Virus record (IMG/VR): IMGVR_UViG_3300033145_002956
Coordinates: 1 to 51,355 of that record
Length of the DNA stretch: 51,355 nt
From: a virus
Taxonomy: Duplodnaviria; Caudoviricetes
Reading direction: 5' to 3' (one strand)
The first letter of the stretch is position 1; each line of letters begins with the position of its first letter. This document shows positions 1 to 51,355 of the stretch, piece after piece. The notes beneath the pieces are model-generated. The model had not been told where the DNA came from, ran no database searches, and worked only from the letters and a program-made list of their open reading frames with translations. A program made the translations under genes and the position numbers.

Positions 1-130
1 TGAGTTATACACATTAAACAATAGCATACTTTATTATAGACATTGTAATAAACAAATATAGAACATTATAGACATTGTAATAAAATATATAGAACTCAAC
101 CTCTCCATAAAAAAACATCTATCCTATCAT
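1..130. repeat. Left inverted terminal repeat (130 bp) containing a ~32-bp tandem repeat
   Basis: Reverse complement of 50982..51111 with one mismatch; internal tandem units ATTATAGACATTGTAATAAA...TATAGAAC at 33-64 and 65-95. Confidence 0.95.
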
Positions 131-6383: not shown

Positions 6384-6505
6384 GATGGATATTTGATTTG
6401 GGGAAGGAGTCTCTTCTCTTCATTCCTATGACCGCTCCTTCCCCACACCGCAACCTAAGGGAAAGGAGGTTGGGACTCCTCCTTTCCTATTTTTTTGGTG
6501 GTTAT

Positions 6506-11226: not shown

Positions 11227-11391
11227 ATGAGAAAGAGGAAGAATATCTGTAAGAAAAGTAAGAGTCAGGTTACGTTACATAGTTATCTTAAGGAGGGTAA
11301 TTTTGGGAAGACTGATTATTATAAAGGTTGGTGGAATGATGTACCTTTTACTGAAGAGGAGAAAAAAAGAAACTTGGAGTTGATAAAATGA
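11227..11391 (+). CDS. Small basic protein (54 aa)
   Basis: Fills the gap between coupled genes; stop overlaps the next ATG. Confidence 0.5.
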   Translation: MRKRKNICKKSKSQVTLHSYLKEGNFGKTDYYKGWWNDVPFTEEEKKRNLELIK

Positions 11392-18896: not shown

Positions 18897-19233
18897 TCTT
18901 GCTGTGGAAAATTGTAGGGCTGCTAAAAAGGAGTATCCTAAGATGAATCCTCAGCTTCGTGGTGCATTATCTCAGTTGATGTATTTTGATGAGAAAAAAA
19001 ATACTTGGGCTTATGTTTTTCCCCAAACGGAAGCGTATTGGAATCCGATTCTTCGGGCTGAGCATTTTCCGAAGTGTATGACTCCTGACTTTATTTTATA
19101 TAAGGCTATAAGGGAAGGGAAGATAGATCGTAGTGATTGTCTCGATGCTGGTATTCCTGACTGGAAGATAAATGCTATGCTCCGAGAGGGAAGGAAAGTT
19201 GCTGAGAAGTATGGGTTTGGTGAGCTACTATGA
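18880..19233 (+). CDS. Hypothetical protein, possibly the C-terminal part of the previous gene
   Basis: No clear SD before the ATG. Confidence 0.55.
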   Translation: MLSIYDLAVENCRAAKKEYPKMNPQLRGALSQLMYFDEKKNTWAYVFPQTEAYWNPILRAEHFPKCMTPDFILYKAIREGKIDRSDCLDAGIPDWKINAMLREGRKVAEKYGFGELL

Positions 19234-30223: not shown

Positions 30224-30231
30224 GTGATAAG

Positions 30232-32580
30232 ATGAGTGGAAATATTAAAGATTTAGATATAGAGAAAATGAGAAAAAGTCAAAGGTCTGTAGTAAATTTA
30301 GTTGCGTACACTACTGAAGCCTGTAATTTAGCCTGCGACTACTGTCACGAGAAAGGTACGCCTATCTTGATGGCAGATTGCAGTTGGAAACCTATAGAGT
30401 TGCTTGAGGTAGGGGATAAAGTAATGGGTTTAGTTAAAAAGAAGAGTTCAACTGGAAAAAGTGAAAATTGGACTTTTGCTAAAACAGAGGTGGAGGCTAC
30501 TACTTCGAGAATTTCGGATACTCTTGTACTGTCTACAGACAAGGGTGATTTTATTTGTACTCCTGAACATAAGTGGTTAGAGAGGCATCATGGTTATAAA
30601 GAATGCAAGGATTTTGTTGAAGGGCAGTTTATAAAGTATGTTTCTCCTCCTGTTGTTGTCGAGGAAACAGAGAATTATAAACTTGGATGGCTTGTTGGAA
30701 TTATTCTTGGTGATGGAACTGTCTCTTGGTATGACTATGATTATGGAAAGATTCGTAGATTTAGGTTAGCTGTTAAGGATAAGGAAATCATTGAACGTTT
30801 TAAGAATTATATGTGGGATGTTCCTTTCCATGATTTTATTATGAAAACAAGGACTGGTAATCTCTTTGCTATTAGAACGGACATCATATCTTGTGCGGAG
30901 AAAATAAGAGATTTGAGTCGTTTGTGGATAGATGATTTTGATTTCTATAGAGGTTTCTTAGGAGGAATCTATGATGCTGAAGGGTATACAGATGGTTATT
31001 CTATAAGAATTGCGAATAAAGATTCCTATATCCTTTCAAGAATTAGAGAGTGTCTCTCTAAATTAGATTTTATGTATGTTTATGAACCGGCGGAGACTTC
31101 TACTAGTCGTACTCCTAAAATACGAGTACTTGGAGGTATGGCACAGAATGTAAGGTTTATTGCTTTGGCTAATCCTTCTATTGGTAGGAAACGTCAGGTA
31201 CTTGAGGGTAAGCAAGTGCATGGCAATGCTCAAGTTTTAGGGCTTAGAGAGGGTGAGAAACAGAGGGTGTACAATATTATGACTGGAACGGGTAACTATG
31301 TTGCTGGAGGTCTAGTATCCAAGAACTGTTTTGTTCCTAAAAAGAAGAATCCTAAAAGCATGGATAACAAAACAGGGGAAGCTATGGTTGATTTTCTAAT
31401 AAAAAATTCTGGTGCTGAAAAAAGAGTTTCCATTGCTTTCTTTGGTGGCGAACCCTTACTTAACTTTGGGCTTATAAAACATGTCGTTAATTATGGTAGT
31501 AGAAAGGCAAAGGAAGCTGGGAAAGTTATGAATTTCTCGGCGACTACGAATGGAACGTTATTTGCTCTAAAACCTGAAATACTTAAATATTGGGAAGAAC
31601 ATAAGCTTGGTGTTCTCCTTTCTATAGATGGATGCGAACAAACCCACAACCTTCATAGAAAGACTAAGGATGGAGAAGGTAGCTGGAAATTGGCTATCCA
31701 GTGTATTCCTACACTCAGACGTTATCTTAAAATGTTTACAGTTAGAGTTACATACTTCCCAGATCACTTCGATCTTCTTGAAGATATTATGGCTCTCATG
31801 AAGCTCGGTGCTCCTAATATTGCTGTTGTTCCTGTGGCTGAGGCTGATTTTGATAATCCAGAGACTTGGTCTAAAGTCGAGAAGATGTACTGGGATCTTG
31901 CGAAAGTTTTTGTTTCTCTTGCTCGAAATGATTGTATTCTTCCTCTTTCCTTTGAGAGAAAGATGTTACTTGATATGTGGAGAATCAGGCACGGTGGCTC
32001 TCGTAAAAGAGGTCCCTGTGGAGCTGGTAAGGGAATGCTTGGAATTTCAACTGAAGGAATAGCGTACCCATGTCACAGATTCGTGGCTCAGGATAAGTAT
32101 AGACTTGGAGACGTTTTCAATGGTATTGATCCTGTAAAGAGGGCAGAGTTTTTGCAGATAAATCAGGATAAAATAAAAGGTGATCTTGAAGACTGTGCTA
32201 TGTGTAGAGCCTTTGAAGTCTGTGGTGGCAGTTGCATCGCTAACAATAATGTGTGGTGTGATAGCATGTACCAGAGTGTTGGAGGTCACTGTAAGATTAT
32301 TAGACTGAGATATGATATATGTAATTATATATATAATCTTTTGGTCTATAAAGAAAAGAATTCTGCTTTAATCAATTATCTTACTACTCATAGCAATATG
32401 GGGAGGAGAATGATAGGTGGACAGGGTAAGGGACAGCCTAAACGACCACCATATCCACAAAATATAAATACTCCAAAGACTATAGATGAGTCTATACGTC
32501 TAATAAAAGAGGGGCTCAAGACAGCTCCTCCTGACATAAAGGAGAAATTAAAAAGAGAACTAAATTTGGAGGTTAAATAA
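30232..32580 (+). CDS. Radical SAM/SPASM peptide maturase (anSME/SCIFF-like), intein-containing
   Basis: CNLACDY[intein]C, FFGGEPLLN, TTNGTL, LSIDG...H...R; SPASM CGAG..GI...G..YPCHRF...C..C.....CGGSC...C. Confidence 0.93.
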   Translation: MSGNIKDLDIEKMRKSQRSVVNLVAYTTEACNLACDYCHEKGTPILMADCSWKPIELLEVGDKVMGLVKKKSSTGKSENWTFAKTEVEATTSRISDTLVLSTDKGDFICTPEHKWLERHHGYKECKDFVEGQFIKYVSPPVVVEETENYKLGWLVGIILGDGTVSWYDYDYGKIRRFRLAVKDKEIIERFKNYMWDVPFHDFIMKTRTGNLFAIRTDIISCAEKIRDLSRLWIDDFDFYRGFLGGIYDAEGYTDGYSIRIANKDSYILSRIRECLSKLDFMYVYEPAETSTSRTPKIRVLGGMAQNVRFIALANPSIGRKRQVLEGKQVHGNAQVLGLREGEKQRVYNIMTGTGNYVAGGLVSKNCFVPKKKNPKSMDNKTGEAMVDFLIKNSGAEKRVSIAFFGGEPLLNFGLIKHVVNYGSRKAKEAGKVMNFSATTNGTLFALKPEILKYWEEHKLGVLLSIDGCEQTHNLHRKTKDGEGSWKLAIQCIPTLRRYLKMFTVRVTYFPDHFDLLEDIMALMKLGAPNIAVVPVAEADFDNPETWSKVEKMYWDLAKVFVSLARNDCILPLSFERKMLLDMWRIRHGGSRKRGPCGAGKGMLGISTEGIAYPCHRFVAQDKYRLGDVFNGIDPVKRAEFLQINQDKIKGDLEDCAMCRAFEVCGGSCIANNNVWCDSMYQSVGGHCKIIRLRYDICNYIYNLLVYKEKNSALINYLTTHSNMGRRMIGGQGKGQPKRPPYPQNINTPKTIDESIRLIKEGLKTAPPDIKEKLKRELNLEVK
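30343..31326 (+). mobile_element. Intein with LAGLIDADG homing endonuclease (328 aa)
   Basis: Starts CHEKGTPILMAD; block B CTPEHKWL; LVGIILGDG and FLGGIYDAEG; ends VYNIMTGTGNYVAGGLVSKN before Cys. Confidence 0.93.
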
Positions 32581-37954: not shown

Positions 37955-40003
37955 TTATTTACAGCATCCTGTACTCTTTATATTTTTTTTGACTGTATTT
38001 TTGTCTTTCTTTCTCATTTTCATTCTTGCTACTACGTCTTCTATTCTCTTCTTTTCCAGTTCTTGTACTAAATTCATTTTCTCCCACTTTTCATATAATC
38101 CAAGCATTTTTAGAATTATCTTTGGGATGTCTATTATGCTATTGCTCTCTTCTTTGTTGCTTGTGTAGTAGAAGGCGTCTATATAGTGTTGTGTGCTTTT
38201 AAATCCATGATCGCTTGTCATTACTAAATTTTTATAGTCAAAGAAGTCTATTACTTCTTTAACGTAGTTGTCTATGAAATAATATACACTGTAGTCATTT
38301 CTGTGACATAGTACATCTACAATGCTTGTTCCTAAAAAAACAACGTTTGTGGGGTATTTCTTATAGAGATCGAAGAACAGGTGCAGTTTATCCATCTCAA
38401 ATTCTTTAGCTTTTATGAGTTCAACATATCCAGCATTTGGGGGAGGTATAAATTCTGGTTTGTACCATTCTGGAAGCTCTTTCTCAAGCCATTTAGGGTA
38501 GCAGTAATCTTTTCCCGAGGTTGGAAAACCACTAATGATATAGCCATTTATTGGTCTTGGTGGCCATGTAATTGGCATATTAAAAAGCCACTCACTGTAC
38601 GCATCGCCGATAATATCAAAGATTGTTATCGTCTTTATATTTGTAAAATACTGTTCTCCTCGTGTCCATCCTCCGCTTGTTATTCCGTGAATTTTAGGTT
38701 CGACTCCTGTATATATTGTACTCCAACAGTTGTGGACTGCGATGTTGTTTATTGTGTAGGAGTTGTCTTCTGCGACTTCGAGGTTGTATACTTCGCCTTC
38801 GTAATCCTCTTCTTTTATGTCTCTTATTGAGATTTCAAAAGTGTTTCCTTTCCTTGTCCAAAGTTTTTGTTTTACTTCTTCATTGGTTTGAAGAATTACA
38901 TTGCCAAATTCTGCGTTTGCTGAGAGCCTATATGCTTTGTGTGTATTTCTACCTTTGTTAGAAAAGGATGTAATTCCACTGACGACACCTATTTTTAGGA
39001 GCATTCTTTGCACTGTTTGGAGGATAGGCAAACAGATGGAGGTTATATAATAATTGTTTTTTCTTTTGTGTCCATCTCCTTTCCAGTATCCTCTTATTAA
39101 TGCCTTTATTAAGTAAGGAGGCAAATATTCTATTTTAGGGGGTATCTTCTTTATACCTTTTGGGGTATTTCCTTCTTTAAATTGTCTGAGGAAATAGTAA
39201 AGTCCTTTGTGTCGTAGCCTTAGTCTAGCAGCGCCTGTATGAAAATGGATGTCACATTTACCAAAGGTGCTAAGATATTTTTGGTACTGTGAGATTAGTT
39301 CTTCATTCAGTTCGTTGAAAGTGATCCTCACATTGTAATTTCCATCAAAAAAAATGCTTCCATCTGCTAACCACATACCCACAAATTCCCAGAATCTTGC
39401 TTTTTGAAATTCTTCTCTTCTTATTGTCTTCGCTCTATTGTTATATGTGTTTATTTTTTTATAGAATATCTCTGGGTCTATCTCAGGGTATTTTATTGAG
39501 GGTACTACTAATCTATATTCTTTACTTATGTCTTTTGCTTCTATCCATTCTTGTTCTTGCGTTCTTATTGTGATGGGTTGTATTTTATGTTTTCTTTTTT
39601 CGTTGTCATAGTGCCTATACTTCTTTGTGGCTCTAATCGGATGTTCAGGAGTACAGAGTATATCTTCCATGTAGAAAGGAGAAATATGTACAATCTTCCC
39701 TTTGTAAAATCTTTTAAAAACCTTAGTAACTGTTTGGAAGCGCCCTCTGTGTGTTAAAACTTTGTCTCCTTCTTTAATTTCACTTATGTCTTTTTCTCCT
39801 TCTATTGTTGTTACTCTATGTCCTTTTGGAAAGCATGGACCCGAGTGTGGAACAATGTCGTCTGATAAAATGCTTCTGTGTACTCCAAGCTTTCCTTCTT
39901 TGCTAAGCTTTTTAAAGGTCGGATAAGAGTTTAAATATCGTAGAAGGTACAGCCCTGATACGCCATCAATTCCGAGCATTAATAAATCCAACTTTGCTGT
40001 CAT
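37955..40003 (-). CDS. Alkaline phosphatase superfamily (NPP/phosphodiesterase-like) protein, intein-containing
   Basis: LGIDGV, PHSGP[intein]CWSTIYTGVEPKIHGI, N.P.TWPPRPING..ISG, D.LCH, MTSDHGF. Confidence 0.88.
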   Translation of the reverse strand: MTAKLDLLMLGIDGVSGLYLLRYLNSYPTFKKLSKEGKLGVHRSILSDDIVPHSGPCFPKGHRVTTIEGEKDISEIKEGDKVLTHRGRFQTVTKVFKRFYKGKIVHISPFYMEDILCTPEHPIRATKKYRHYDNEKRKHKIQPITIRTQEQEWIEAKDISKEYRLVVPSIKYPEIDPEIFYKKINTYNNRAKTIRREEFQKARFWEFVGMWLADGSIFFDGNYNVRITFNELNEELISQYQKYLSTFGKCDIHFHTGAARLRLRHKGLYYFLRQFKEGNTPKGIKKIPPKIEYLPPYLIKALIRGYWKGDGHKRKNNYYITSICLPILQTVQRMLLKIGVVSGITSFSNKGRNTHKAYRLSANAEFGNVILQTNEEVKQKLWTRKGNTFEISIRDIKEEDYEGEVYNLEVAEDNSYTINNIAVHNCWSTIYTGVEPKIHGITSGGWTRGEQYFTNIKTITIFDIIGDAYSEWLFNMPITWPPRPINGYIISGFPTSGKDYCYPKWLEKELPEWYKPEFIPPPNAGYVELIKAKEFEMDKLHLFFDLYKKYPTNVVFLGTSIVDVLCHRNDYSVYYFIDNYVKEVIDFFDYKNLVMTSDHGFKSTQHYIDAFYYTSNKEESNSIIDIPKIILKMLGLYEKWEKMNLVQELEKKRIEDVVARMKMRKKDKNTVKKNIKSTGCCK
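38729..39835 (-). mobile_element. Intein with LAGLIDADG homing endonuclease (369 aa)
   Basis: Starts CFPKGHRV; CTPEHPI; FVGMWLADG and LIRGYWKGDG; ends VYNLEVAEDNSYTINNIAVHN before Cys. Confidence 0.93.
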
Positions 40004-40075: not shown

Positions 40076-40729
40076 ATGACAGAAAGTAAAACTGAAGATG
40101 GTATGCCTGCTATGAATATTGCTCTTGCGTTGAATACAGGAGGTACTTGTGCTACTAAGACTCTTGAGACTTTCCTTATTAACATTATACGCTTTTTGTC
40201 TAGTAGGCAGGACAAATGTCTTGTGAATTATATATTTGTGGAAGCAGAGTCATCGAATCCTTCTCGGGCTTCTAATATGTTGTGTAAACAGTTGATTGAG
40301 CTTGACTATGACTATGTATTCTTCTTTGATTTGGATATAGTGATGCCTCCAAATTTACTTACTGATCTGATTGAGAACGCTGAGAAAAAAAACTTAGATA
40401 TTGTTTGTGGATGGGCTTATCAAAAGGATTTCCCGCCAAAAACCAATTTATTACTGAGAGAGGAAGGAGGCTATGCAGTAATAACTGAGATTGGAACTAA
40501 AGAGTTGTTTGAGGTAGATGCTACTGGTCCTGCCTGTATGCTTTTAAGGAAGGGTGTAATAGAATCCATTGAGCCTCCCTGGTTCCAAGATTCACAGGGA
40601 AATTTTAAGGAGGGTGATACCTTTGTTGGTCCAGATATAAGACTCTGTGAGAAATTTAAGAAGGCAGGCTATAAGATATGGATTGATCCTAATCTGCGAT
40701 GTGGTCATATAGGTAGGTATGTATTCTAA
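40076..40729 (+). CDS. GT-A fold (GT2-like) glycosyltransferase
   Basis: YVFFFDLD DxD motif, EVDATGPACMLL, D..LCEK...GYKIWIDP...CGHIG. Confidence 0.82.
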   Translation: MTESKTEDGMPAMNIALALNTGGTCATKTLETFLINIIRFLSSRQDKCLVNYIFVEAESSNPSRASNMLCKQLIELDYDYVFFFDLDIVMPPNLLTDLIENAEKKNLDIVCGWAYQKDFPPKTNLLLREEGGYAVITEIGTKELFEVDATGPACMLLRKGVIESIEPPWFQDSQGNFKEGDTFVGPDIRLCEKFKKAGYKIWIDPNLRCGHIGRYVF

Positions 40730-40738
40730 GGTGATTGA

Positions 40739-41206
40739 GTGTATAAAGTGTATCCCAACGCTGTAATTCCAAAGAGGGAGAATGTGAGTATAGGAGATCA
40801 TAGTGTCATAGAGGATTTTGTACTTATTTATTCTTCAAAGGTGGAGATAGGGAAGTATGTGGAGATTGGAGCTGGTACGAAGATTGTTGGGAAAGGAGAG
40901 CTATATATAAGTGATTTTGTTACAATTGCTCCAAGTTGTGTAATAATCACTTCGACTCCCAATCTGCATAAGGAACTTATGGTGTCCTCTATGATACCTG
41001 ACAACATGAGAGATCCTATTATCGGAAAGACTTTTATAAGAAATCATGCTTTCATAGGTGCGGGTTCTATTATCCTTCCTAATGTGGAGATTCAGAGGAA
41101 GTGTGTTGTAGGTGCTAATTCTACAGTTCTGTCTAATTCTGTGCTTGAATCAAATTCGGTATATGTTGGTTCTCCTGTTAAGAAAGTAGGGGTGAGATTT
41201 AGATGA
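40739..41206 (+). CDS. Hexapeptide-repeat (LbH) acetyltransferase
   Basis: IGDHSVI, IGKYVEIG, FIGAGSIILPNV, VVGANS, YVGSPVK. Confidence 0.88.
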   Translation: MYKVYPNAVIPKRENVSIGDHSVIEDFVLIYSSKVEIGKYVEIGAGTKIVGKGELYISDFVTIAPSCVIITSTPNLHKELMVSSMIPDNMRDPIIGKTFIRNHAFIGAGSIILPNVEIQRKCVVGANSTVLSNSVLESNSVYVGSPVKKVGVRFR

Positions 41207-41442
41207 AATTAGATGCCTTCATACCAGATTATGAGCCTCATAAAAGATTACCTGTAAAATTGTCTAAAAAGTCACCTAAAAAATTACCTAATCAGTGCGT
41301 AGTAGATCATGATTGTGAGGGGGAAGTTAGAATAAGAGAGACGAATCGTGAGGGTGTTGTGATACCCCTATGTGACAAACACTATAAAAGATTGGTTAAG
41401 GTTGGTCTTGATATAAACTTGTTTATGTCTGGAGGTAAATAA
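41203..41442 (+). CDS. Small putative zinc-binding protein
   Basis: C....DC...LCDKH. Confidence 0.6.
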   Translation: MKLDAFIPDYEPHKRLPVKLSKKSPKKLPNQCVVDHDCEGEVRIRETNREGVVIPLCDKHYKRLVKVGLDINLFMSGGK

Positions 41443-41443
41443 G

Positions 41444-42553
41444 ATGATTAAAGTTTCAAAGCCTATGGTAGGTCAAGAAGAAATAGACGCAGTTGCAGAG
41501 GTCTTGAGATCGGGTAACTACGTCTCTGGAAAAAAAGTTGAAGAGTTTGAAAAAGCCTTTGCTGAGTACATCGGTACAGATTATGCAGTTGCGGTGAACT
41601 CTGGAACGGCTGCATTACATCTTTCATTGCTTTCTCTTGGTATTGGTAAGGGTGATAAAGTTATCGTGCCACCTCTCTCTTTTTTTGCTACTATTGAGGC
41701 GGTACTCTATACAGGGGCTACTCCTATCTTTGCGGATATAGCACCGAGTTCTTTCAATATTGATCCTGAATCTATAAAGACGATTGTCGAAAAAGAGGAT
41801 ATACAGGCTATAATCCCTGTTCACTTTATGGGGATACCTTGTAATATGAAGAGAATTATGGATATTGCGAGGAAGAATGATATATATGTAATCGAAGATG
41901 CTTGTCAAGCTCATGGTGCATCTATAGAGGGCAAAAAAGTTGGTAGTTTCGGAGATGCTGGTTGTTTTAGTTTTTATGCTACAAAGAATATGACCACAGG
42001 AGAGGGAGGTATGATAACAACGAATAATCCCATTATTGTTCATTTATCTAAAATCATGAGAAATCATGGTATGCTTGATCGTCATACTCATGCTGTGTTA
42101 GGATACAATTACCGCATGACAGAGATGGAGGCTGCTATGGGTCTTGTTCAGCTTAAAAAGCTTGATGAAGCAAATGCTGTGAGGTGGAAAAATACAACTT
42201 ACTTATACAGCAAGCTTATTGATGTGGCTTGGATAGATGTCGTTTATTTTCCCTGTCGTGGAGACAGTGGACAGAGATCTGTTTTCTACTGGTGTCCTAT
42301 ATTGGTGTCTGAAGGTACGTTGGGTATGAAAACTAAGAAGCTGGTCAAACTTCTCAGAGAGAAAGGTGTTGAAGTTCGTTATCGCTACAAAAAGCCACTT
42401 TATAAGCAACCAGTTCTTCGTAGATTGGGCTGTAACAAGTTGCACCTTTCCAATGCGGAGAAAGTCGCAGGAAAATATATCGGTCTCCCGAATCGTAGCG
42501 ATATGACGAAAGAAGAGTTAGATTTTGTTATAAAAACTATTAAGGAGGTGTAA
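41444..42553 (+). CDS. DegT/DnrJ/EryC1/StrS PLP-dependent sugar aminotransferase
   Basis: AVNSGTAALH, IEDACQAHG, FSFYATKNMTTGEGG, GYNYRM. Confidence 0.95.
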   Translation: MIKVSKPMVGQEEIDAVAEVLRSGNYVSGKKVEEFEKAFAEYIGTDYAVAVNSGTAALHLSLLSLGIGKGDKVIVPPLSFFATIEAVLYTGATPIFADIAPSSFNIDPESIKTIVEKEDIQAIIPVHFMGIPCNMKRIMDIARKNDIYVIEDACQAHGASIEGKKVGSFGDAGCFSFYATKNMTTGEGGMITTNNPIIVHLSKIMRNHGMLDRHTHAVLGYNYRMTEMEAAMGLVQLKKLDEANAVRWKNTTYLYSKLIDVAWIDVVYFPCRGDSGQRSVFYWCPILVSEGTLGMKTKKLVKLLREKGVEVRYRYKKPLYKQPVLRRLGCNKLHLSNAEKVAGKYIGLPNRSDMTKEELDFVIKTIKEV

Positions 42554-42555
42554 AT

Positions 42556-42861
42556 ATGTATAATTTTCATAAATGTATAAATAGCTGTATAGAAAAAGAA
42601 GATTTAGAGAGTTTGAAACTATTTGTGGAATTGCTTTTGGCAGAGCGTCTGAGTTCTATGGCAGACTACAAAGAACTCGTCTTTTGTAATGTGGTTAAGA
42701 GTGATGATTTTATTGCTAAGACTTTAGCAATCGATGCACAAGATATAGTTTATTGTGTTAAGACACTAGAAGCTATACCAGAAGGAGATTGGGATACTAT
42801 AAGGAAGCTCTTTTCCCAATGGGATGTAGATGTCGCATCTAGAATAGTTGAGGAGGTGTAA
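42556..42861 (+). CDS. Hypothetical protein
   Basis: GGAGGTG SD; inside operon. Confidence 0.7.
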   Translation: MYNFHKCINSCIEKEDLESLKLFVELLLAERLSSMADYKELVFCNVVKSDDFIAKTLAIDAQDIVYCVKTLEAIPEGDWDTIRKLFSQWDVDVASRIVEEV

Positions 42862-42863
42862 TT

Positions 42864-44039
42864 ATGGAGGATAATATTCTTGTAACAGGTGCGGAGGGTA
42901 CTATTGGCTGGCCTGTGTGTATGAGATTAGCTTTAAAATATCCAGAAAAAATGATAGTCGGTGTTGATAATGGGAGTAGAAGTTTATGGGTATATGACTG
43001 TGGTAGTGTCTCTGCAATTCCCATAGCTTCTATGAAAGAGAGAGTAGATGCCTTTGTAAATGAGTTTGCTCAAGTAAATCTCTCTCTTCAGGAACGTGAT
43101 GTGAGAAATGGGTTTCTAGAGAGGGTAATAAAACATGAGAAGATAGGTACTGTTGTTCATCTGGCAGCACAACCTTCAGCTCCTTACAGTATGAAACGTC
43201 CTTTGTACACACTTAGAAACAACAATGATGCTACATTACGGCTTATCTTAGCTATAAAAGAAGTCAATCCTAAAATTAGACTTATCGAAACTACAACTAT
43301 GGGTATTTATGGCACACCCCCAATAGAGATAGAGGAAGATTTTTATGTGGTTCCCGAACCAGAAGCTTTTGATTTTTTACCCGGACATGAACATCGCAAT
43401 CCTACTTATGCACAGAGGCACAATCTACCTCTCCCCCCTTTTCAAGGCGGAAGTTGGTATCACAGATCGAAATCGTATGATGCCAGCATGTTGCAGTTTG
43501 CTTCTTTTCGCTATGGTATTCCTACTGTGGATTTAAGGTTGGGTGTTGTGATAGGTGTGGGTACTACTGAAACTAAGAAAGATCCGAGACTTGCTACGAG
43601 ATTCGATTTTGACTTCTATTTTGGAGTTCTTGCCAATCGTTTCGTTGCTCAGGCTCTAACAGGTTATCCTCTTACAGTTTATGGGAAAGGAGGTCAAACA
43701 AGAGGATATATCTCTCTTGAAGATACTGTGCAGAGAATAGTAAATGCAGTTGAACTCTCCAATGATGGATACTTACCAATAAATATATTGGATAAGTGTT
43801 ATAGTGTTAGAGAGATGGCTGAGCATGTGGCTAAGGCTCACTATGGAACAGAAGTTCAGACTGTACCCAATCCCAGAAAGGAGAGTGAGGATCATTATTA
43901 CAATCCTTCTACATCGAGGATGAGAAAATTGCTGGGAGAGCCAAAGGATTCCTTAGATGATGTTCTAAGAGATGCGTTCACTACTCTTGAGCCTTACAAA
44001 GAGAGAATTGCATCTCACAAGGAGGCGTTTATGAAATGA
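42864..44039 (+). CDS. sqdB: UDP-sulfoquinovose synthase (SqdB/Agl3 family)
   Basis: HLAAQPSAPYSM, TTTMGIYGTP, GGSWYHRSK, ATRFDFDFYFG..NRFVAQA..GYPLTVYGKGGQTRG, NPRKE.EDHYY. Confidence 0.88.
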   Translation: MEDNILVTGAEGTIGWPVCMRLALKYPEKMIVGVDNGSRSLWVYDCGSVSAIPIASMKERVDAFVNEFAQVNLSLQERDVRNGFLERVIKHEKIGTVVHLAAQPSAPYSMKRPLYTLRNNNDATLRLILAIKEVNPKIRLIETTTMGIYGTPPIEIEEDFYVVPEPEAFDFLPGHEHRNPTYAQRHNLPLPPFQGGSWYHRSKSYDASMLQFASFRYGIPTVDLRLGVVIGVGTTETKKDPRLATRFDFDFYFGVLANRFVAQALTGYPLTVYGKGGQTRGYISLEDTVQRIVNAVELSNDGYLPINILDKCYSVREMAEHVAKAHYGTEVQTVPNPRKESEDHYYNPSTSRMRKLLGEPKDSLDDVLRDAFTTLEPYKERIASHKEAFMK

Positions 44040-44923
44040 ATCTTTTAATTACGGGTGCATTGGGATATATTGGAAGTGCTCTTCTAAGAGAGTTGAATCC
44101 TTCTAATTTTGGAATAATAAGGATTTTGGATAATCTCTCTGTTGGGAAGGTAGCGAATATGATGAATCTACCGTACACTCCAGAGCTAGACATAGGAGAT
44201 ATTCGGACAAAAGAGGAAGATGTGTATCCTGCAATGGAAAATATTGATATAGTAATACATCTTGCTGGGCTGACCACTCTCCCTCAATATTCTCCTGAGA
44301 TGATAGGGAGGACTATGAGTATAAATGTTTCGGGTACGGAAACTTTATTAGACGTAGCGGAAGATTGTGGAGTCTCTAAATTCATTTATGCTTCCACCTG
44401 TAATATCTATGGTAAGAACTCAAAGATGAATTTAAACGAAGATGATCCTGTTGATCCATTGAATCCTTATTCAAGAACAAAATACTTGGCTGAGCAAGAG
44501 GTTTTAAAAAGAAAATCTTTGTCTCCATTGTGTTTGCGTTTGGCAACTAACTATGGGTGGTCTCCTGGAATTAGATGGAACTTAGTGATCAATAAATTCG
44601 TGATGTACAAAGCCATGAGAGAGCCTCTGCCTGTCTATGGAGAGGGTAATAACTGGAGAGCCTTTATCCATGTCCAAGATACTGCTAGAGCCTTCCTACA
44701 TGGGTTAGAGAAGAATTTGGAGGGGGTCTATAATGTTGGGGATGTCAATTTTACAGTGCAGGATATTGTTCACCTACTGAACTATAATAACATTACATAT
44801 TTTCCAGAAAGGGAGAAGTCCAGCTATCATGTTTCTTTTGACAAGTTTACGAAAACAGGGTTTGCTCCATCTGTTTCAGTGGAAGAAGGAATTAGAGATT
44901 TGGAAAGGAGATTTGGATTATGA
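44036..44923 (+). CDS. NAD-dependent epimerase/dehydratase (extended SDR)
   Basis: ITGALGYIGS, IHLAG, YASTCNIYG, YSRTK, RLATNYG. Confidence 0.92.
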   Translation: MNLLITGALGYIGSALLRELNPSNFGIIRILDNLSVGKVANMMNLPYTPELDIGDIRTKEEDVYPAMENIDIVIHLAGLTTLPQYSPEMIGRTMSINVSGTETLLDVAEDCGVSKFIYASTCNIYGKNSKMNLNEDDPVDPLNPYSRTKYLAEQEVLKRKSLSPLCLRLATNYGWSPGIRWNLVINKFVMYKAMREPLPVYGEGNNWRAFIHVQDTARAFLHGLEKNLEGVYNVGDVNFTVQDIVHLLNYNNITYFPEREKSSYHVSFDKFTKTGFAPSVSVEEGIRDLERRFGL

Positions 44924-45156
44924 GATTCAGGAAAATCAGATTCAGGAAAATTAAGCTTAAATTGTTATTTGCTGAGGGGATAGTCTACAGAGGCTTCATT
45001 ATTTGCGTTCAGACTATCTTCTTTTGGATTCTAACTGGCAGTTTTAGGTGGGCTATCGGTACGTCACTGGCTTGGAACTGTGTAAATATGTGTTGTTATT
45101 ACCTCTACCACTATGTTTTCCTTAGAATGTTCAAAATGGGGAAGGAAGATCCCTAA
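44920..45156 (+). CDS. Small membrane protein (DUF2061-like)
   Basis: IVYR...FFWILTGS...A....N...YYLY. Confidence 0.55.
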   Translation: MRFRKIRFRKIKLKLLFAEGIVYRGFIICVQTIFFWILTGSFRWAIGTSLAWNCVNMCCYYLYHYVFLRMFKMGKEDP

Positions 45157-45192
45157 CAAAACATTTTTAAATCTCTATCCTAATATAGATAC

Positions 45193-45495
45193 ATGACAAT
45201 TTTATCGGATATGTATGATGTAGTAACGATAGACGTCTCTACAACGCACAATGATGTGGATATAGATCAGTTGGGCTTTTCTTATGCAGAGTGGGAGTTT
45301 ATAAAGACGATTACTGTAGTTTCTTCAGCTATAGCAAGTTTCTATCTGTGTTTTGATGATAGGGGTAAAAATAAGATTCCTGTGAAGAGTGGTGATGAAT
45401 TTACTGACATGAAAATAAAGAGGATTTACTTCACTAATACACTAACTGCGGCGGGAAATGCGGTATTGTATCTTGATGGTGTCAAAAAAAGGTGA
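45193..45495 (+). CDS. Beta-rich putative virion protein (paralog of 17593..17967)
   Basis: Shared motifs; TTTTTAAA TATA box upstream. Confidence 0.7.
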   Translation: MTILSDMYDVVTIDVSTTHNDVDIDQLGFSYAEWEFIKTITVVSSAIASFYLCFDDRGKNKIPVKSGDEFTDMKIKRIYFTNTLTAAGNAVLYLDGVKKR

Positions 45496-46049
45496 TTGGC
45501 ATGACATTGGGAGTTAGTAAGTCACATATTGTGGATACAGAGCATTCTTTATGGGTAGATGGTGATGGAGCAGTACCCATGTTCGATGTGGAAAGGAGAA
45601 GAGCGTATTTATCAAAACAATTTTTCGCATCATATCGTTGGTTAAATGTCACAGATGGTACTGCGAAATATTTGCATTTTAGGACTCCTTCTACTATGGT
45701 AGATATTGTGTTTACGGCGGAGGTGTGTGGGAAGGCATGGGTAGATCTCTTTGAGAATCCCTCATTGTCTAATAATGGAACAGAAATATCCATATTCTGT
45801 ACGAACAGAGAAGATCCTGCCACAACAGAAGCGAAAGTGTATAGAGATCCAACTGTTACATCAGAAGGTACATGCATAGAAACTACTCTAATTGGGACTC
45901 CTGGAAAGTTTACTTTGACTGGTGGTATCTCTGTAGGCTATGGGTACTGGTACTTAAAGAGCAATACTTCCTACTTATCAAAGATAACAAATAAAGCGGG
46001 ATCTGCTTCTGATATAGGAGTAGCATTAACCTTTTTTGTCAATGAATAG
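45492..46049 (+). CDS. Putative virion protein
   Basis: Beta-rich; LFENP....GT.I...NR, LKSNTSYL.KITN. Confidence 0.65.
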   Translation: MIGMTLGVSKSHIVDTEHSLWVDGDGAVPMFDVERRRAYLSKQFFASYRWLNVTDGTAKYLHFRTPSTMVDIVFTAEVCGKAWVDLFENPSLSNNGTEISIFCTNREDPATTEAKVYRDPTVTSEGTCIETTLIGTPGKFTLTGGISVGYGYWYLKSNTSYLSKITNKAGSASDIGVALTFFVNE

Positions 46050-46213
46050 GGGAGAAAAATGAATAGGAAGGAATATCTCTTACTTATTCTACGAACTTAA
46101 CAACTCCAAGAGAAGTTTTGAGTCTCGCCTTATTATACTCTTCTTCTCCAACTTCATAAATCTCTTCCCATATTGATGCTGGGAGCAGTAAATGGATATA
46201 TTTTTCTTCCATT

Positions 46214-46630
46214 TTATCCCCTGTATTTCTTCTTGATCTTTCTCAATGCCTCTGCGGTATCGGGGGTAGCAATCTCCTCAATGCTTTTCCAAAAGGAAAA
46301 GCATCCTGCTGGTATATGCTTATCAATTTCACTAACAGTTTTCTCGATAAAAACATCAACTGGATAGGGTATCATCCTACAAATAGTATTGATCAATGTC
46401 TCATCTATGCTTTCTTCTGAAAGAATTTCAAGAACAAGATTATAAATATCATTTACAGTATATCCTTTCTCTTCAAGCATTTTTTTCGCATATTTCAATC
46501 TTGAAAGTCCCTTTAGTTTTATTGTGTATATATATTTACTCATTTTTTCACCAATTCTTGGATTCAAAGAACAACTCAAATTTACCTTTTCTTTGCTTCC
46601 ATATTCTAACAGGCAAAACAGCATTTTCAA
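46214..46630 (-). CDS. Hypothetical protein
   Basis: Part of the minus-strand operon; start probably at MSKYIY. Confidence 0.6.
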   Translation of the reverse strand: MKMLFCLLEYGSKEKVNLSCSLNPRIGEKMSKYIYTIKLKGLSRLKYAKKMLEEKGYTVNDIYNLVLEILSEESIDETLINTICRMIPYPVDVFIEKTVSEIDKHIPAGCFSFWKSIEEIATPDTAEALRKIKKKYRG

Positions 46631-46897
46631 CTATTTCTTTGAGCTTTTCAATACATGCTTTCCAGAGCCATGAGTCCAAATACTTCTACAGATAAGGAAG
46701 GCCGACTTTTTTGCTCTTTTTCCTCCTTTGCGTTCAACATAGAATTTCTCTACAGCTTCATGTTCTATAGCTTGCCATACAAGATCTGTAAAAGCTTCTA
46801 TTCTCTCTTTCAGTATTTTTATTTCTGTTTCTATTTCTTCTATTCTACCAACTGCCTTTCCTAATTCAAAGGGTATATTTATTTCATATTTACTCAT
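46631..46897 (-). CDS. Coiled-coil hypothetical protein
   Basis: GAGGTG SD. Confidence 0.6.
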   Translation of the reverse strand: MSKYEINIPFELGKAVGRIEEIETEIKILKERIEAFTDLVWQAIEHEAVEKFYVERKGGKRAKKSAFLICRSIWTHGSGKHVLKSSKK

Positions 46898-47031
46898 TTT
46901 TGCACCTCATATCCATTCATGACCTGTCCATTTAAAGAGTTTTCTGCAATGCTCGCATCTACAAACAAAACTTCCTGTTGGGTTATTGAGAACATGATCT
47001 CCAATAATGGAGCAGATCGGAGGAGGCTTCA

Positions 47032-47310
47032 TCAATCTTTCACCTCACCATCCAATTTTTCTCTTAATTTATGTAATTCTTTAACTATGGCGTCAACTTT
47101 ATCCCATTGAGCATCTGTACTTGCGTTTATCTCTGATCTTCGTTTATCTAACTCCTCTTCTGTAATTTCTCCTTTATCATATCTATACTCTATTAAATTA
47201 TGCGCTGCATCTGCATGAGCTGTTGGGTCTCCCATCTCCTCTAATCTCTTCTTGAGATACTTTATCCTTTCATAGTCCCTCAATTCTTCTAAAATCTTCA
47301 TATAATTCAT
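47032..47310 (-). CDS. Hypothetical protein with SHOCT-like motif
   Basis: RYDKGEITEEELDKRR. Confidence 0.65.
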   Translation of the reverse strand: MNYMKILEELRDYERIKYLKKRLEEMGDPTAHADAAHNLIEYRYDKGEITEEELDKRRSEINASTDAQWDKVDAIVKELHKLREKLDGEVKD

Positions 47311-47624
47311 GTTATACGAACCTCTTTGAGCTTCCAGAATTTTCTCATCTCCTCTACCCTCTTAGCCAATATGTAGAGGTCTTCTATGTATATAGCTCTA
47401 CCAGTCTTCGAAAGACAGTCCGTTCTTGGATGATTCTCAAGAAATCCACTGTACACAAACACAACTATAGTCCCAGAGGAAGATAACCTTATTTCAGCAA
47501 AGTCCTCACTGTTCTTATATGGTTTTCTACATAGCCATTCTCTCCTGTGAGAACTTCTCAAGCTCACAAAAACAGATTTAGTACCCCACCTATTGTCAAA
47601 AAGAGTGAATTTTCCTTTTGTCAT
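47307..47624 (-). CDS. Hypothetical protein
   Basis: Coupled ORF. Confidence 0.65.
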   Translation of the reverse strand: MTKGKFTLFDNRWGTKSVFVSLRSSHRREWLCRKPYKNSEDFAEIRLSSSGTIVVFVYSGFLENHPRTDCLSKTGRAIYIEDLYILAKRVEEMRKFWKLKEVRIT

Positions 47625-47971
47625 TTTTTTACCCCCCTTATTAGCTTTCCTTTTTTCTCTCTATTTTTAATGGCTTCAGCAATTTTGTCTTTTATTGCGT
47701 CCATCATTAGATCGGTACAAGATTGGAGGTCTCCCTCAAAAACGCCTATTTCACGTCCATTAGGATCGTAGAATGTCAACGTGTATCCCTTCTTGATTAT
47801 CTTTCCCTTTTCTCCCTCATATTTATTTTTATCCTTCAATTTCTCATGGATTACAAGCGTGAATCTACAATGTTCTGAGCTTATACTTATGTCCTCGACT
47901 TTGACATCTCCGTGCTTCTCGGCTTCCTGTGCGATTCTCACAACAATAGCCAACAGATCAGATTCTTTCAT
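47621..47971 (-). CDS. Hypothetical protein
   Basis: Coupled ORF with GGTGA SD. Confidence 0.65.
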   Translation of the reverse strand: MKESDLLAIVVRIAQEAEKHGDVKVEDISISSEHCRFTLVIHEKLKDKNKYEGEKGKIIKKGYTLTFYDPNGREIGVFEGDLQSCTDLMMDAIKDKIAEAIKNREKKGKLIRGVKK

Positions 47972-48246
47972 TCGATCACCTTTGGGCGTCTGAAGAAGCC
48001 TTTTATACTCTCTATTATCATCTCGAAATTCGTCGCTGGGCGATATATATCTATTGTTCCATCCTTATTTTTTATCAGTTCAAGATTTTGTCCCTTATAT
48101 TCTATACAGTATGCTGCGTCAACGACCATTCTTTCAGGATGTATCATTATTTTTACGATGCTTGGATCGTATGGATTTTTCTCTGTATAAACAGGTGATG
48201 GCTTCCTCACCTTCGTTGCTCTATTCTGTGTATCATATACTGGCAT
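47968..48246 (-). CDS. Hypothetical protein
   Basis: Coupled ORF. Confidence 0.65.
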   Translation of the reverse strand: MPVYDTQNRATKVRKPSPVYTEKNPYDPSIVKIMIHPERMVVDAAYCIEYKGQNLELIKNKDGTIDIYRPATNFEMIIESIKGFFRRPKVIE

Positions 48247-48255
48247 ACACGAACC

Positions 48256-48399
48256 TCACTTTTGGGGTATCTGTACAACCTTTCCCTTTTGTGAGTAACA
48301 ATATCCACATGCAGGACAACAGTAGAAGTACCAATCGTACTCACCACATTCTACAACCAATTTGAGCATGTGATCTCTATTACATTTTTGACACAACAT
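48256..48399 (-). CDS. Small zinc-ribbon protein (47 aa)
   Basis: MLCQKC...YCCPACGYC; GAGGTGA SD. Confidence 0.65.
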   Translation of the reverse strand: MLCQKCNRDHMLKLVVECGEYDWYFYCCPACGYCYSQKGKVVQIPQK

Positions 48400-48427
48400 T
48401 TATTCACCTCTTTTATTCAGTTCATCC

Positions 48428-49300
48428 TCGACAATTTTACAAACCTTCTCAAGAAAAGTCTGCCACTTCTTACAATGTAGTCTGCCTTTCAGTTCTATTA
48501 CTTTATAGTACAATTCATCTGGAATGTACTTAAATGTTATATTTAATATCTATATTTCCTTCGTGTAATTGCTATTATACAAACCTCTCCATATATTCTG
48601 TCCACTCTTCCATATGTCTTCTTTGCTCCATCCTTTTTACATCACTACGCCACTGTTCCATTTCATCTCCCCAAATGCAATCCAAAAGATTGTAAAGTAT
48701 GGGGAGAATTACGAACACATACAACACCATTGCCAAGAGAATCAATCCAAAATTCATGTTATCCATTTTAAAGCTATTTGTTATCTGTTCTAGTGTTTTC
48801 CCAGATCCAAGATGACACAAGCTTGTCCACAAGACTATATATATTAGCATTATCCCATTCTCTTGGGATCGCTCCAAGTATTCTGTCATAGTTTTCCAAG
48901 ACGATGATATAATCTTTATATATCTCTATCTCAAGTTTTGTTATTACCCTCTTTTCTGTACTACTTTTTGTCATTCTCTATCCCTCCCCCTACTTTATTT
49001 CTATCTTCTTTAACTTTTTCTCTAATGTAAAATGCAAGACTATCCAACTCGTAACGAATGCCATGTATATTCTTGGTAATAGGATTACTCTCACATTTTT
49101 CCTTTATCCTACCCAATATGTTTGCCCACCTTAAGGCCTCTTCCATCCCATCTAAGCCCTCCTTTGCTTCTGCATCCAGCTCCTCATCGACAATTTTACA
49201 AACCTTCTCAAGAAAAGTCTGCCACTTCTTACAATGTAGTCTGCCTTTCAGTTCTATTACTTTATAGTACAATTCATCTGGAATGTACTTAAATGTTATA
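48428..49300. repeat. 114-bp direct repeat (48428..48541 and 49187..49300) encoding an RHH-like segment
   Basis: Two copies identical by inspection. Confidence 0.9.
48774..48974 (-). CDS. Hypothetical protein
   Basis: GGGGGAGG SD; coupled ORF. Confidence 0.55.
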   Translation of the reverse strand: MTKSSTEKRVITKLEIEIYKDYIIVLENYDRILGAIPREWDNANIYSLVDKLVSSWIWENTRTDNK

Positions 49301-49320
49301 ACTCATTGCTTATTGTTCAT
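48961..49320 (-). CDS. RHH-like regulator fusion with an in-frame TGA at codon 6
   Basis: ATG at 49320 reads MNNKQ*VITFKYIPDELYYKVIELKGRLHCKKWQTFLEKV. Confidence 0.5.
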
Positions 49321-49387
49321 TTTGATATATACTCTAAAGTATGCATAAGCTTTATATACTCTACCTACTTTCTTGATAGTGATACCT

Positions 49388-49525
49388 ATGAAAAAAGGAA
49401 AAGTTATAACCATAAAGGACATACCAGTGGATTTGTTTTTTAGAGCTGTAAAGCTTAAAGCTGAGCTTCACTGTAAGACTTGGGGAGAGTTCCTTAAGAA
49501 GGTTGTGAAGAAATTAGAGGGATAA
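49388..49525 (+). CDS. Ribbon-helix-helix-like regulator (45 aa)
   Basis: MKKGKVITIKDIPVDLFFRAVKLKAELHCKTWGEFLKKV; paralog of the divergent RHH genes. Confidence 0.7.
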   Translation: MKKGKVITIKDIPVDLFFRAVKLKAELHCKTWGEFLKKVVKKLEG

Positions 49526-49527
49526 GG

Positions 49528-49941
49528 ATGGATGATCCAATAGGACATGGTAGAGCAATGGCAAGGGTTATAGAGGTAATGGAAACTGCGGACGAGAGGC
49601 CTATGAGGAAGTATACCTCAGATTTAGAAAATTTGAAGGTGGATATATTTATAGAAATGAATCGTCCCTCTTTTTGCGGTGAAAAAGGACTTGTGTTGTT
49701 TTTTGGATTTTTATTGATGTTGTTAGTGATACCTAATCCTTACTTCGGTCTGTGGTCGGGTAGAGGGGTATATTATCTCCAAACAGTAATAATAGTGTTC
49801 TTATTGATTCTTGGTGCGTTTTTATGTAGTGTGTGGTTATATCTGAAGACAAGAAAAGCGATAAGGAAGTATGACAGGTTGATAGAGGAGAAAGATAGAG
49901 AAGAGATTAAGAGAGAGATGCATATATTTGGATTGTGGTAA
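49528..49941 (+). CDS. Two-TM membrane protein
   Basis: Two hydrophobic segments. Confidence 0.65.
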   Translation: MDDPIGHGRAMARVIEVMETADERPMRKYTSDLENLKVDIFIEMNRPSFCGEKGLVLFFGFLLMLLVIPNPYFGLWSGRGVYYLQTVIIVFLLILGAFLCSVWLYLKTRKAIRKYDRLIEEKDREEIKREMHIFGLW

Positions 49942-50042
49942 TCTCTGAGGAGGTGATTTTGTGTATGAATATACAGGTATAATAGTGTTTTTGGGACTGC
50001 TAATAGGTACATCGTGGCTACTGTGACTTCGTGTAATTGCTA

Positions 50043-50735
50043 TTATACGAAGTTGATCGAATTAATATTCTTGAGGAACATCTCACCAATGTACTTTGAA
50101 TATGCAGGAGGTACAGCTTGTGCAAGCATCTTCTTATCTGTTATCCAATCTATACCCATGGCGTGTTGCCATACTTCCAATTTAGATTTATTTTCAAGAC
50201 CATTCAATTTGCAGTAATTGTGCTTAGAATCGTTTCCACCATGACCTGCCACAGTGACATAATACCCATCTTTGACTAGTCCTCTATGTTTCTTGTGGTT
50301 GGGCTGTGGCACTTTGAAGCCATGTATCTCAAAATACCTGTGTCTTATCACCTTTAATCCAAACATCTCCCCACAGAGCATTAAATCCTTCCGTATGGGT
50401 GACCCAGGAACATTCTCAATAATGAATGGCTTCCCACTATCAAGAAGGATCTTCCGTGTACGACTTATGAGGTCAGGGTAGGATCTTCCCTCATTGTGCC
50501 ACCGTCTTGCTGCATAAGAGTAAGCTTGACATGGGGGAGAAGCCCATATAAGATCAAATTGCGCATAGAAGTCTTCATAGTAGGGAAACATCATTTTCGT
50601 AACATCATTCTGTACAAAGATGAAAGGATATTCAGGTTGAGGGTTTATGTCAACTCCTATTATCGTGTCAAAACCGGCCATCTTCAAGCCCATACTTGCT
50701 CCACCAGCTCCACAATACAAATCCAAAACCTTCAT
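50043..50735 (-). CDS. DNA (cytosine-5) methyltransferase, short viral type
   Basis: LDLYCGAGG, WASPPCQ, IIENV, RHR.F, AVPPAY. Confidence 0.92.
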   Translation of the reverse strand: MKVLDLYCGAGGASMGLKMAGFDTIIGVDINPQPEYPFIFVQNDVTKMMFPYYEDFYAQFDLIWASPPCQAYSYAARRWHNEGRSYPDLISRTRKILLDSGKPFIIENVPGSPIRKDLMLCGEMFGLKVIRHRYFEIHGFKVPQPNHKKHRGLVKDGYYVTVAGHGGNDSKHNYCKLNGLENKSKLEVWQHAMGIDWITDKKMLAQAVPPAYSKYIGEMFLKNINSINFV

Positions 50736-50822
50736 ACTTTTACTAAGAGTCCATGTTAAAAAAACTTCGTATAACAGAAAAAGAAAGACATTCCAATCTA
50801 TCTATTCTACTATCTAACCTAA

Positions 50823-50893
50823 GTCATGAAATCCATCAAAATTTTATGACTATCCTATAGCTTATGTCATGAAATCCATCAAAATTTTATGAC
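50823..50893. repeat. Two identical 28-bp imperfect palindromes
   Basis: GTCATGAAATCCATCAAAATTTTATGAC at 50823 and 50866. Confidence 0.9.
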
Positions 50894-50981
50894 ATCTATT
50901 GTTACTCTAATGTAAGTTACACAATGAAGTTAATTTATCATGTCTATTTTAGTAGCTATGAACCTATTTAGTTAATCATGG

Positions 50982-51111
50982 ATGATAGGATAGATGGTTT
51001 TTTATGGAGAGGTTGAGTTCTATATATTTTATTACAATGTCTATAATGTTCTATATTTGTTTATTACAATGTCTATAATAAAGTATGCTATTGTTTAATG
51101 TGTATAACTCA
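50982..51111. repeat. Right inverted terminal repeat
   Basis: Reverse complement of 1..130. Confidence 0.95.
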
Positions 51112-51334
51112 ATGCTATTGTTTAATGTGTATAACTCAGTAGATAAGACAGAATCCAAAACAAGACAGGATACGCCCCCGAATAGCAAATAGAACTGGAA
51201 TGTCTGTCAGTTTTGCTTTCCTTTGGAAAGCAAAACTGACAGACATTCCAGTTCTTTTTTTTTTTTTTTGGCGTATCCTGTCTTGTTTTGGATTCTGTCT
51301 TATCTACTGAGTTATACACATTAAACAATAGCAT
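51112..51334. other. Terminal fold-back hairpin: TTT loop, 31-bp stem, 14/14-nt mismatched bubble, 65-bp outer stem
   Basis: 51191-51221 pairs with 51225-51255; bubble CCCGAATAGCAAAT faces T14; 51112-51176 pairs with 51270-51334. Confidence 0.9.
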
Positions 51335-51355
51335 ACTTTATTATAGACATTGTAA

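Follow-up and report, generated by a model that had tools for sequence, protein, structure and literature searches.

The window analysed here, a stretch of 51,355 nt (no N, 39.1% G+C) that constitutes the entire IMG/VR virus record IMGVR_UViG_3300033145_002956, looks like the genome of an uncultured archaeal virus to judge by its archaeal-viral gene content, and its terminal fold-back is best read as a telomere of the hairpin type, in a lineage of archaeal viruses that is unplaced and carries a predicted Ku-like protein and an ATP-dependent DNA ligase. [quoted passage not shown] Among archaeal viruses, hairpin-ended genomes are documented for the rudiviruses in passages of PMC5062984. If the ends of the present genome are closed, they would add a lineage without detectable relative in the collections searched and with a different tool set, i.e. 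Ku and ligase without a recognisable Rep, resolvase or protelomerase.

[quoted passage not shown] Two palindrome arms of 110 nt each (51112-51221 and 51225-51334), which are 93% complementary, lie 3 nt apart. Outward from the central TTT, a perfect 31-bp stem is followed by segment B1 opposite T14, then by 65 perfect bp made up of segment S (38 nt) and unit U (27 nt), and finally by the remaining inverted terminal repeat (ITR). Folding of 51085-51355 as single-stranded DNA gave -115.9 kcal/mol vs -20.1 +/- 3.4 kcal/mol for 200 shuffled sequences (z = -28.4), none of which folded as well. The only breaks in the continuity from ITR to hairpin are the 3-nt loop, the 14x14 mismatch, a 27-nt indel and one mismatch. 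An initial annotation of this DNA had described an ITR, stems, a 14-nt bubble and a TTT loop as well as a re-entry into the sequence of position 1, and all of these elements were recovered at the same positions, with the last 48 nt of the window being identical to positions 1-48. Two of its details need to be refined. The outer stem of 65 bp is indeed perfect over this length, but it does not lie wholly beyond the ITR as had been assumed, since its outer 27 bp are the second copy of U. Likewise, the poly-T side of the bubble is correctly placed, with T14 opposite B1, while the homopolymer itself comprises 15 nt if the last T of the stem (51255) is counted. Apart from this T15 run, no homopolymer in the window exceeds 8 nt. 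Within the 14x14 block, chance pairing would occur at 6 of the 14 'bubble' positions. The word CCCCGAATA (51176-51184) occurs a single time in the window, on the B1 side, and recurs in the apex palindrome of a relative (see below); judging from this distribution, it may be a recognition word.

Table 1. Positions of the terminal elements and of selected genes in the 51,355-nt window.
Feature	Position	Strand	Basis or remark
Left ITR	1-130	+	opens with 27-nt unit U' (1-27); 20-nt iterons 33-52 and 65-84, minus strand
Predicted Ku-like DNA-end-binding protein, zinc ribbon, 266 aa	1285-2085	+	fold and family matches
Minimal ATP-dependent DNA ligase, 266 aa	2217-3017	+	next gene after Ku; PF01068, E 2.2e-24
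ParA-like ATPase	6398-7210		Pfam
RNase H-fold exonuclease-like protein, 196 aa	7465-8055		RNase_H_2 / DNA_pol_B_exo2 domain (Pfam)
Helix-turn-helix and weak MCM-like ATPase	8968-10917		Pfam
S-layer-like protein	12863-14377	+	PF05124, E 2.5e-22
Protein with PHROG 'primase' region and nucleotidyltransferase domain	19230-20831		Pfam, PHROGs
Radical SAM protein, intein-bearing	30199-32580	+	Pfam; Hint, LAGLIDADG
Type I phosphodiesterase-like protein, intein-bearing	37955-40003	-	Pfam; Hint, LAGLIDADG
Sugar-nucleotide/glycosylation block (glycosyltransferase, hexapeptide acyltransferase, DegT-type aminotransferase, two epimerase/dehydratases)	40076-45156	+	Pfam
Cytosine methylase	50043-50735	-	Pfam
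28-nt repeat in two exact copies, ends inverted (GTCAT...ATGAC); putative protein-binding sites	50823-50850, 50866-50893	+	just inside right ITR
Right ITR	50982-51111	+	iterons 51028-51047 and 51060-51079; unit U 51085-51111
Second tandem copy of 27-nt unit U	51112-51138	+	right arm only; outer 27 bp of the 65-bp stem; absent from the relative in X3
Segment S, 38 nt	51139-51176	+	perfect pairing with S' (51270-51307); two CTGTCTTRT words, minus strand
B1, CCCGAATAGCAAAT	51177-51190	+	left side of 14x14 mismatch
Inner palindrome	51191-51255	+	31-bp stem (51191-51221 / 51225-51255); TTT loop 51222-51224 is the symmetry centre
T14	51256-51269	+	right side of 14x14 mismatch
S', then re-entry into left ITR	51270-51355	+	S' 51270-51307; 51308-51355 identical to 1-48

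The two copies of the ITR (1-130 and 50982-51111) are 99% complementary over 130 nt with a single G/T mismatch, and the reverse complement of 1-110 is found exact at 51002. Overall, the arms differ in four ways, namely in the loop, in the 14-nt block, in the one G/T mismatch and in the 27-nt indel that corresponds to the extra U of the right arm. The word CTGTCTTRT is present in six copies vs 1.19 expected, a number reached by none of 100 shuffles. Four of these copies are placed in S/S' (51143-51168 and 51278-51303) and one just inside the left ITR (186-194), and the word may act as a binding word. Possible protein-binding sites are furthermore suggested by the two 28-nt repeats, which have no other copy in the genome and none at the left end. 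The relative keeps the surrounding stretch 50773-50972 with 4 other letters in 200.

The contig as such is compatible with several topologies. It passes through the palindrome and re-enters its own ITR, and for this reason carries a 48-nt 'direct terminal repeat'; IMG/VR labels the record with 'direct terminal repeats' and as 100% complete. One assembly graph (unique sequence, then repeat, then apex loop), built from identical short words, is expected for a linear genome capped on either side by the same hairpin, for a double-stranded head-to-head or end-to-end junction and for a circle with one palindrome. Hence, the label 'circular/complete' has no weight in either direction, and behind a catalogue entry of the kind 'direct terminal repeat, complete, circular' there can be a linear genome whose hairpin was traversed during assembly. 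A similar ambiguity applies to the bubble. The distance between B1 and T14, which flank a common 31-bp stem, amounts to 65 nt, so that shorter assembly words cannot phase one with the other, and the same contig is expected from two perfectly paired, unlike ends (one with B1, the other with A14:T14) or from a double-stranded junction of ends. In the initial annotation, the mismatch had been held against a simple fold-back artefact. This argument is sound insofar as a plain fold-back copies its template and would thus yield the complement of B1 instead of T14, but it does not prove an imperfect hairpin. Within the reading of closed ends, two forms receive roughly equal weight from us. Either each hairpin would contain a true mismatch bubble with B1 opposite T14, in flip and flop orientation, or the right end would harbor B1 and the left end A14:T14, each of them perfectly paired. 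We know of no precedent for a pure T tract of 14 nt opposite 14 unrelated bases, and the T14 tract, which is accounted for by none of the readings considered here, is the main oddity of this terminus.

The fold-back could in principle have been generated in vitro or in silico. According to this explanation, a polymerase folded back at the small natural inverted repeat TGCTTTCC-TTT-GGAAAGCA while the DNA was amplified or the library prepared, or the assembly followed a chimeric path, which would create the inner 31-bp stem together with a false closure. Short inverted repeats are the typical place for fold-back chimeras, and the window folds back exactly at one of them. We nevertheless consider an artefact very unlikely, as it is at odds with the sequence of T14 for the reason given above, as the ITR (1-130 / 50982-51111) is independent of the fold-back, and as a second, independently assembled data set folds back beyond the same repeat.

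This second data set belongs to a mosaic relative of the virus. Among ten public runs, all of them available as contigs, none contained the virus itself, and the best share of its sampled words in any of them was 0.19. At 80% likeness, the comparison comprised 19 records of run X1 and two records of run X3, and the relative is present in either run with a high depth. Two contigs, X1 record 7 and X3 record 8 (10,801 nt), have their end at window position 50972. This lies 10 nt short of the inner ITR boundary, a place where a repeat would break them. X3 record 9 (354 nt) spans 51017-51232 with 13 other letters and with a single U copy (27 nt missing at 51085). Its last 30 letters form the perfect palindrome TCTCTCCCCGAATAT followed by ATATTCGGGGAGAGA, and the contig ends 15 nt beyond the centre of this palindrome, which is the stop expected at a fold-back for assembly words of 31 letters. 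The independent data set likewise folds back past the same repeat, with its apex 23 nt further out than the TTT of the window. After the same TTT loop, the relative has no more of the return arm than its first 8 nt before it continues to another apex, a difference that can be cited in favor of an artefact in the window. Provided that the relative's palindrome is symmetric, the apex of the window would correspond to that of the relative minus 49 nt between two direct 8-nt GGAAAGCA words. Long palindromes are prone to central deletions of this kind, be it in vivo or in vitro, and the TTT apex of the window could thus be a derived or minority form. The 15 letters beyond the relative's centre, in turn, could rest on few reads, and an open blunt end with rare fold-back reads could look alike. 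Sequencing depth in X1 at 51085 is 919 vs 498-545 in neighbouring single-copy contigs, and X3 record 9 has a depth of 191 vs 132.6 for record 8; these ratios weakly suggest a two-copy repeat, as they are contig means, not copy numbers, and blind to circle vs linear. X3 is without a contig over 51233-51355 and X1 has little over 51179-51224, which is uninformative because palindromic contigs were placed once and 51243-51271 was masked. The contigs compared do not tell B1 from A14. Over 41356-50972, stretches of 95-99% identity between relative and window alternate with replaced or missing blocks (e.g. skips of 1361, 757, 921, 1186 and 2192 nt), and the methylase region 49372-50707 has no cover from the relative in X1/X3.

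A second line of evidence is provided by the genes near the left ITR, from which the Ku-like open reading frame (ORF) is separated by 1.2 kb, with the ligase directly after. ORF 1285-2085 itself gave a weak zinc-ribbon match and no match to the Pfam Ku family PF02735 at E <= 0.01. By exhaustive search, 51 relatives were collected, 43 of which were aligned with the query, leaving out the near-identical P0022 and the short or weak P0023, P0054, P0064, P0067, P0069, P0070 and P0071. Twelve of the 44 aligned family members are matched by PF02735 (best E 6.3e-8). Moreover, the AlphaFold2 model of the protein (pLDDT 89.1, pTM 0.85) was compared with the PDB using Foldseek, and all 28 matches listed are Ku proteins (human Ku70/80, B. 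subtilis, M. tuberculosis) with a probability of 1.00, E 2.3e-9 to 1.4e-7 and TM 0.41-0.51 on the query. A tblastn comparison of the window's Ku with 50,697 phage and virus records remained without a match at E <= 0.01. Its fold and position predict a role in the end system, in which the ligase may either seal resolved ends or join ends. Given that Ku and ligase are encoded 1.2 kb from the repeat, the virus most likely has DNA ends at some stage. A permanently circular genome becomes less likely in consequence, whereas closed and open ends are not distinguished; in fact, Ku and ligase suit open, joined ends at least as well as closed ends. Regarding precedents, a literature search for Ku protein together with viruses of archaea gave the review PMC13685816 as the only paper naming both, and passages of this review describe no archaeal virus Ku. 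A virus-borne archaeal Ku beside a telomere would make it testable how hairpin or open ends escape Mre11-Rad50, a subject of passages in the same review (PMC13685816).

The adjacency of Ku and ligase near the repeat is also the main asset of a scenario in which the virion DNA is linear and open-ended with long imperfect inverted repeats. Ku and ligase would join these ends after entry into the host, and the contig would represent the intracellular circle. In this case, the centre of the palindrome would be the joint, and TTT, perhaps together with T14, would be filler or end-joining scars. Ku-encoding mycobacteriophages may serve as a precedent, since they reportedly circularise their genomes by end joining, as Pitcher et al. 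are said to have described in 2006. The 3'-5' exonuclease-like protein (7465-8055) and the nucleotidyltransferase-domain protein (19230-20831) could conceivably trim or extend such ends, and the halt of the relative's contig at its palindromic tip would also result from a physical end that is blunt, given a small number of fold-back reads. Yet, error-prone joining during each infection should blur the joint, while a single clean sequence was assembled, and no enzyme is in sight that would reopen the circle at its centre. Arms of 240 bp far exceed any need of a cutting site, and the equal length of B1 and T14 (14 nt each) would have to be a coincidence. We regard open ends as a minority possibility.

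A permanent circle of 51,307 bp with one long imperfect palindrome, for example an iteron-bearing origin, appears quite unlikely to us. The record closes on itself and is called complete with direct terminal repeats by IMG/VR, but this closure depends wholly on the contig running back into the inverted repeat, as would also be seen for a linear genome with hairpins, and thus lends no weight to a circle. More specific support could be seen in the iterons of both arms, in transcription that diverges from the palindrome region and in the 31-bp hairpin followed by T15, which resembles a terminator; oligo-T tracts stop archaeal transcription. However, no plus-strand gene is located upstream of this putative stop within 50760-51190. 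It is also difficult to see why a virus devoid of DNA ends should carry a Ku, palindromes as long as ~480 nt are not stable within a double-stranded circle, and the contigs of the relative break both at the repeat boundary and at the palindrome centre.

With regard to enzymes that could maintain such ends, the window has 123 ORFs of 70 aa or more, and 72 distinct ones were compared with Pfam, the remainder being mostly overlapping or antisense frames; the narrower profile scans covered 60 ORFs (PHROGs) and 10 ORFs (NCBIfam). No family B or protein-primed polymerase, nor any polymerase family, was detected by Pfam among the 72 ORFs; only the exonuclease-like domain of the 196-aa protein was found. 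Without a protein-primed polymerase, the repeats do not resemble the repeats of terminal-protein systems. Junction resolvases, rudiviral or HUH Rep proteins, tyrosine recombinases and protelomerases were likewise not found in the 72 (Pfam), 60 (PHROGs) and 10 (NCBIfam) ORFs; several ORFs had no match of any kind, and a divergent enzyme may therefore be among them. Two candidates were considered and rejected. As a resolving enzyme, the product of ORF 11388-12227, which combines a winged helix with a possible nuclease motif, was dismissed, having only two homologues besides itself and an unusable AlphaFold2 model (pLDDT 38.3). As a breaking-rejoining enzyme, the Toprim-like protein of ORF 5455-5853 (+, 132 aa) was dismissed, as its relatives occur in 75 ordinary tailed-phage records and are not specific to hairpin replicons. 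The latter protein matches positions 166-292 of the 303-position PHROG 6247 'DNA topoisomerase' (E 1.7e-31), the N-terminal half of which was not found in the ORFs upstream of 5455-5853, and it gave no sequence match in the PDB.

Taken together, the ITR that is continuous with the fold-back, the lack of a protein-primed polymerase, the presence of Ku and ligase and the fold-back of the relative make a telomere-type end the best explanation, as the initial annotation had proposed. Closure of this end, which formed part of the same proposal, would be a further and more tentative step. For a linear genome with closed hairpins, the following pathway can be envisaged. The genome would be a linear duplex with inverted repeats of ~240 bp and with both strands joined at each tip. 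Tip-crossing reads would lead the assembler from the right arm round the hairpin into the shared repeat and in this way produce the 48-nt repeat. During replication, the hairpin would be converted to a double-stranded palindromic junction, which a junction nuclease, be it the host Hjc or an unrecognised viral protein, may then extrude or cut before the nicks are sealed by the viral ATP-dependent ligase. A ligase step after junction-nuclease resolution is part of the model proposed for poxviruses and rudiviruses in passages of PMC5062984. The viral Ku could form a ring on the tips and shield them from end nucleases such as Mre11-Rad50, which are described as a threat to hairpin telomeres in passages of PMC13685816. 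Finally, an initiator might be bound by the iterons of the repeat.

In a more speculative version, to which we assign a rather low probability, the closed hairpins would contain a permanently open 14x14 bubble with T14 on one side and CCCCGAATA on the other, and thereby possess a built-in replication start behind Ku-capped tips. Such a bubble could load the viral helicase and permit priming on the oligo-T strand, or it could expose a single-stranded nick site. Replication could then start at the telomere without melting, while the zinc-ribbon Ku would cap the tips. If true, this would be a telomere design that has not been described for any archaeal virus.

Hairpin-ended viruses are listed in passages of PMC5062984, according to which the Rudiviridae (SIRV1/SIRV2) are archaeal viruses with linear dsDNA, ITRs, hairpin ends and head-to-head intermediates, which a junction resolvase is proposed to resolve; ITRs of up to 2 kb are found in rudiviral genomes of 25-35 kb. 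The present genome shares with them the archaeal-viral character, the ITRs and the hairpin-type ends, the latter being read from the sequence in our case. Rudiviruses, however, possess genes for a Rep nickase and for a Holliday junction resolvase. Neither enzyme was found among the profile matches of the present genome, nor was any rudiviral coat protein family. To our knowledge, Ku and ligase are not features of rudiviruses. The hairpins of pox-, asfar- and chloroviruses exist in flip and flop forms and are A+T-rich with scattered unpaired bases, and these viruses have a ligase. Similarities to the window thus comprise an incompletely paired hairpin that is continuous with the ITR, an unfolded hairpin as replicative junction and a viral ligase. 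In contrast to the window, pox-type hairpins do not contain a 14x14 block with one homopolymer side, and pox-type viruses use a RuvC-like virus resolvase, which was not found here. In addition, they belong to the giant viruses of eukaryotes and bring their own polymerases.

The telRL sites of N15, PY54 and phiKO2 are palindromes in a circle or junction that are cut and rejoined into two hairpin ends, as stated in passages of PMC13685816. These sites resemble the present terminus in that the ends may differ outside the core, and the apex of the relative is a perfect 30-nt palindrome. On the other hand, a protelomerase of the TelN, TelK or ResT type was not found, a ligase is not needed in these systems, and the centre of the window is an odd 3-nt spacer. 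With respect to the perfect symmetry of protelomerase targets around the cut, perfect 31-bp arms flank the odd TTT in the window and are followed by the 14-nt asymmetry. A mismatch bubble near the nick site, with flip and flop arising by hairpin transfer, is known from parvovirus hairpins such as the left end of minute virus of mice. Parvoviruses differ, however, by their single-stranded genomes of ~5 kb and by an HUH-helicase initiator, and no HUH protein was detected in the window. By its enzymes, the window falls outside the rudivirus, pox-type, N15-type and parvovirus systems alike. With respect to Ku, a Ku-like gene is described for Cluster O phages in passages of PMC4351075. Ku-encoding mycobacteriophages (Corndog, Omega) share with the window a virus-borne Ku homologue that is tied to genome ends. 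These phages are tailed, have short cohesive ends and use a host ligase.

None of the collections searched yielded a relative whose ends could be read. Telomere words gave no pattern match in viral_contigs, metagenome_contigs and genome_contigs, with one of the metagenome patterns being blind to an apex of the type seen in the relative. For ligase and helicase, no relative was found in viral_contigs or genome_contigs. GenBank phage and virus records contained neither a DNA match to 50700-51355 nor a protein match to the S-layer-like protein. The 'primase' alignment contains 13 loci that share only this domain with the window, plus the methylase in four of them, and these loci are consequently uninformative on the ends. 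No Rfam family reached its gathering score, no tRNA was found, and a scan for consensus promoters and terminators gave nothing usable.

The host lineage is weakly hinted at by two protein clusters (P0073 and P0086) that are related to the window's Ku-like and helicase proteins and that carry the NCBI name 'Thermococci archaeon' for proteins from a metagenome-assembled genome (MAG); alternatively, a viral contig may have been binned with that MAG. GC skew ranges from 0.19 to 0.42 per 2 kb over 1-46000, corresponding to a strong excess of G over C on the coding strand, and flips at 46-50 kb, where the genes turn to the minus strand. The flanking genes on either side of the palindrome would be transcribed away from it, which would also suit a telomere region. 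The two intein-bearing genes share a 32-nt stretch (30539-30570 and 39641-39672) that is 78% complementary. Lastly, the hydrothermal-vent runs X5 and X9 contain many short contigs over the sugar-nucleotide/glycosylation block (40076-45156), most of which are less than 90% alike and probably represent cellular homologues.
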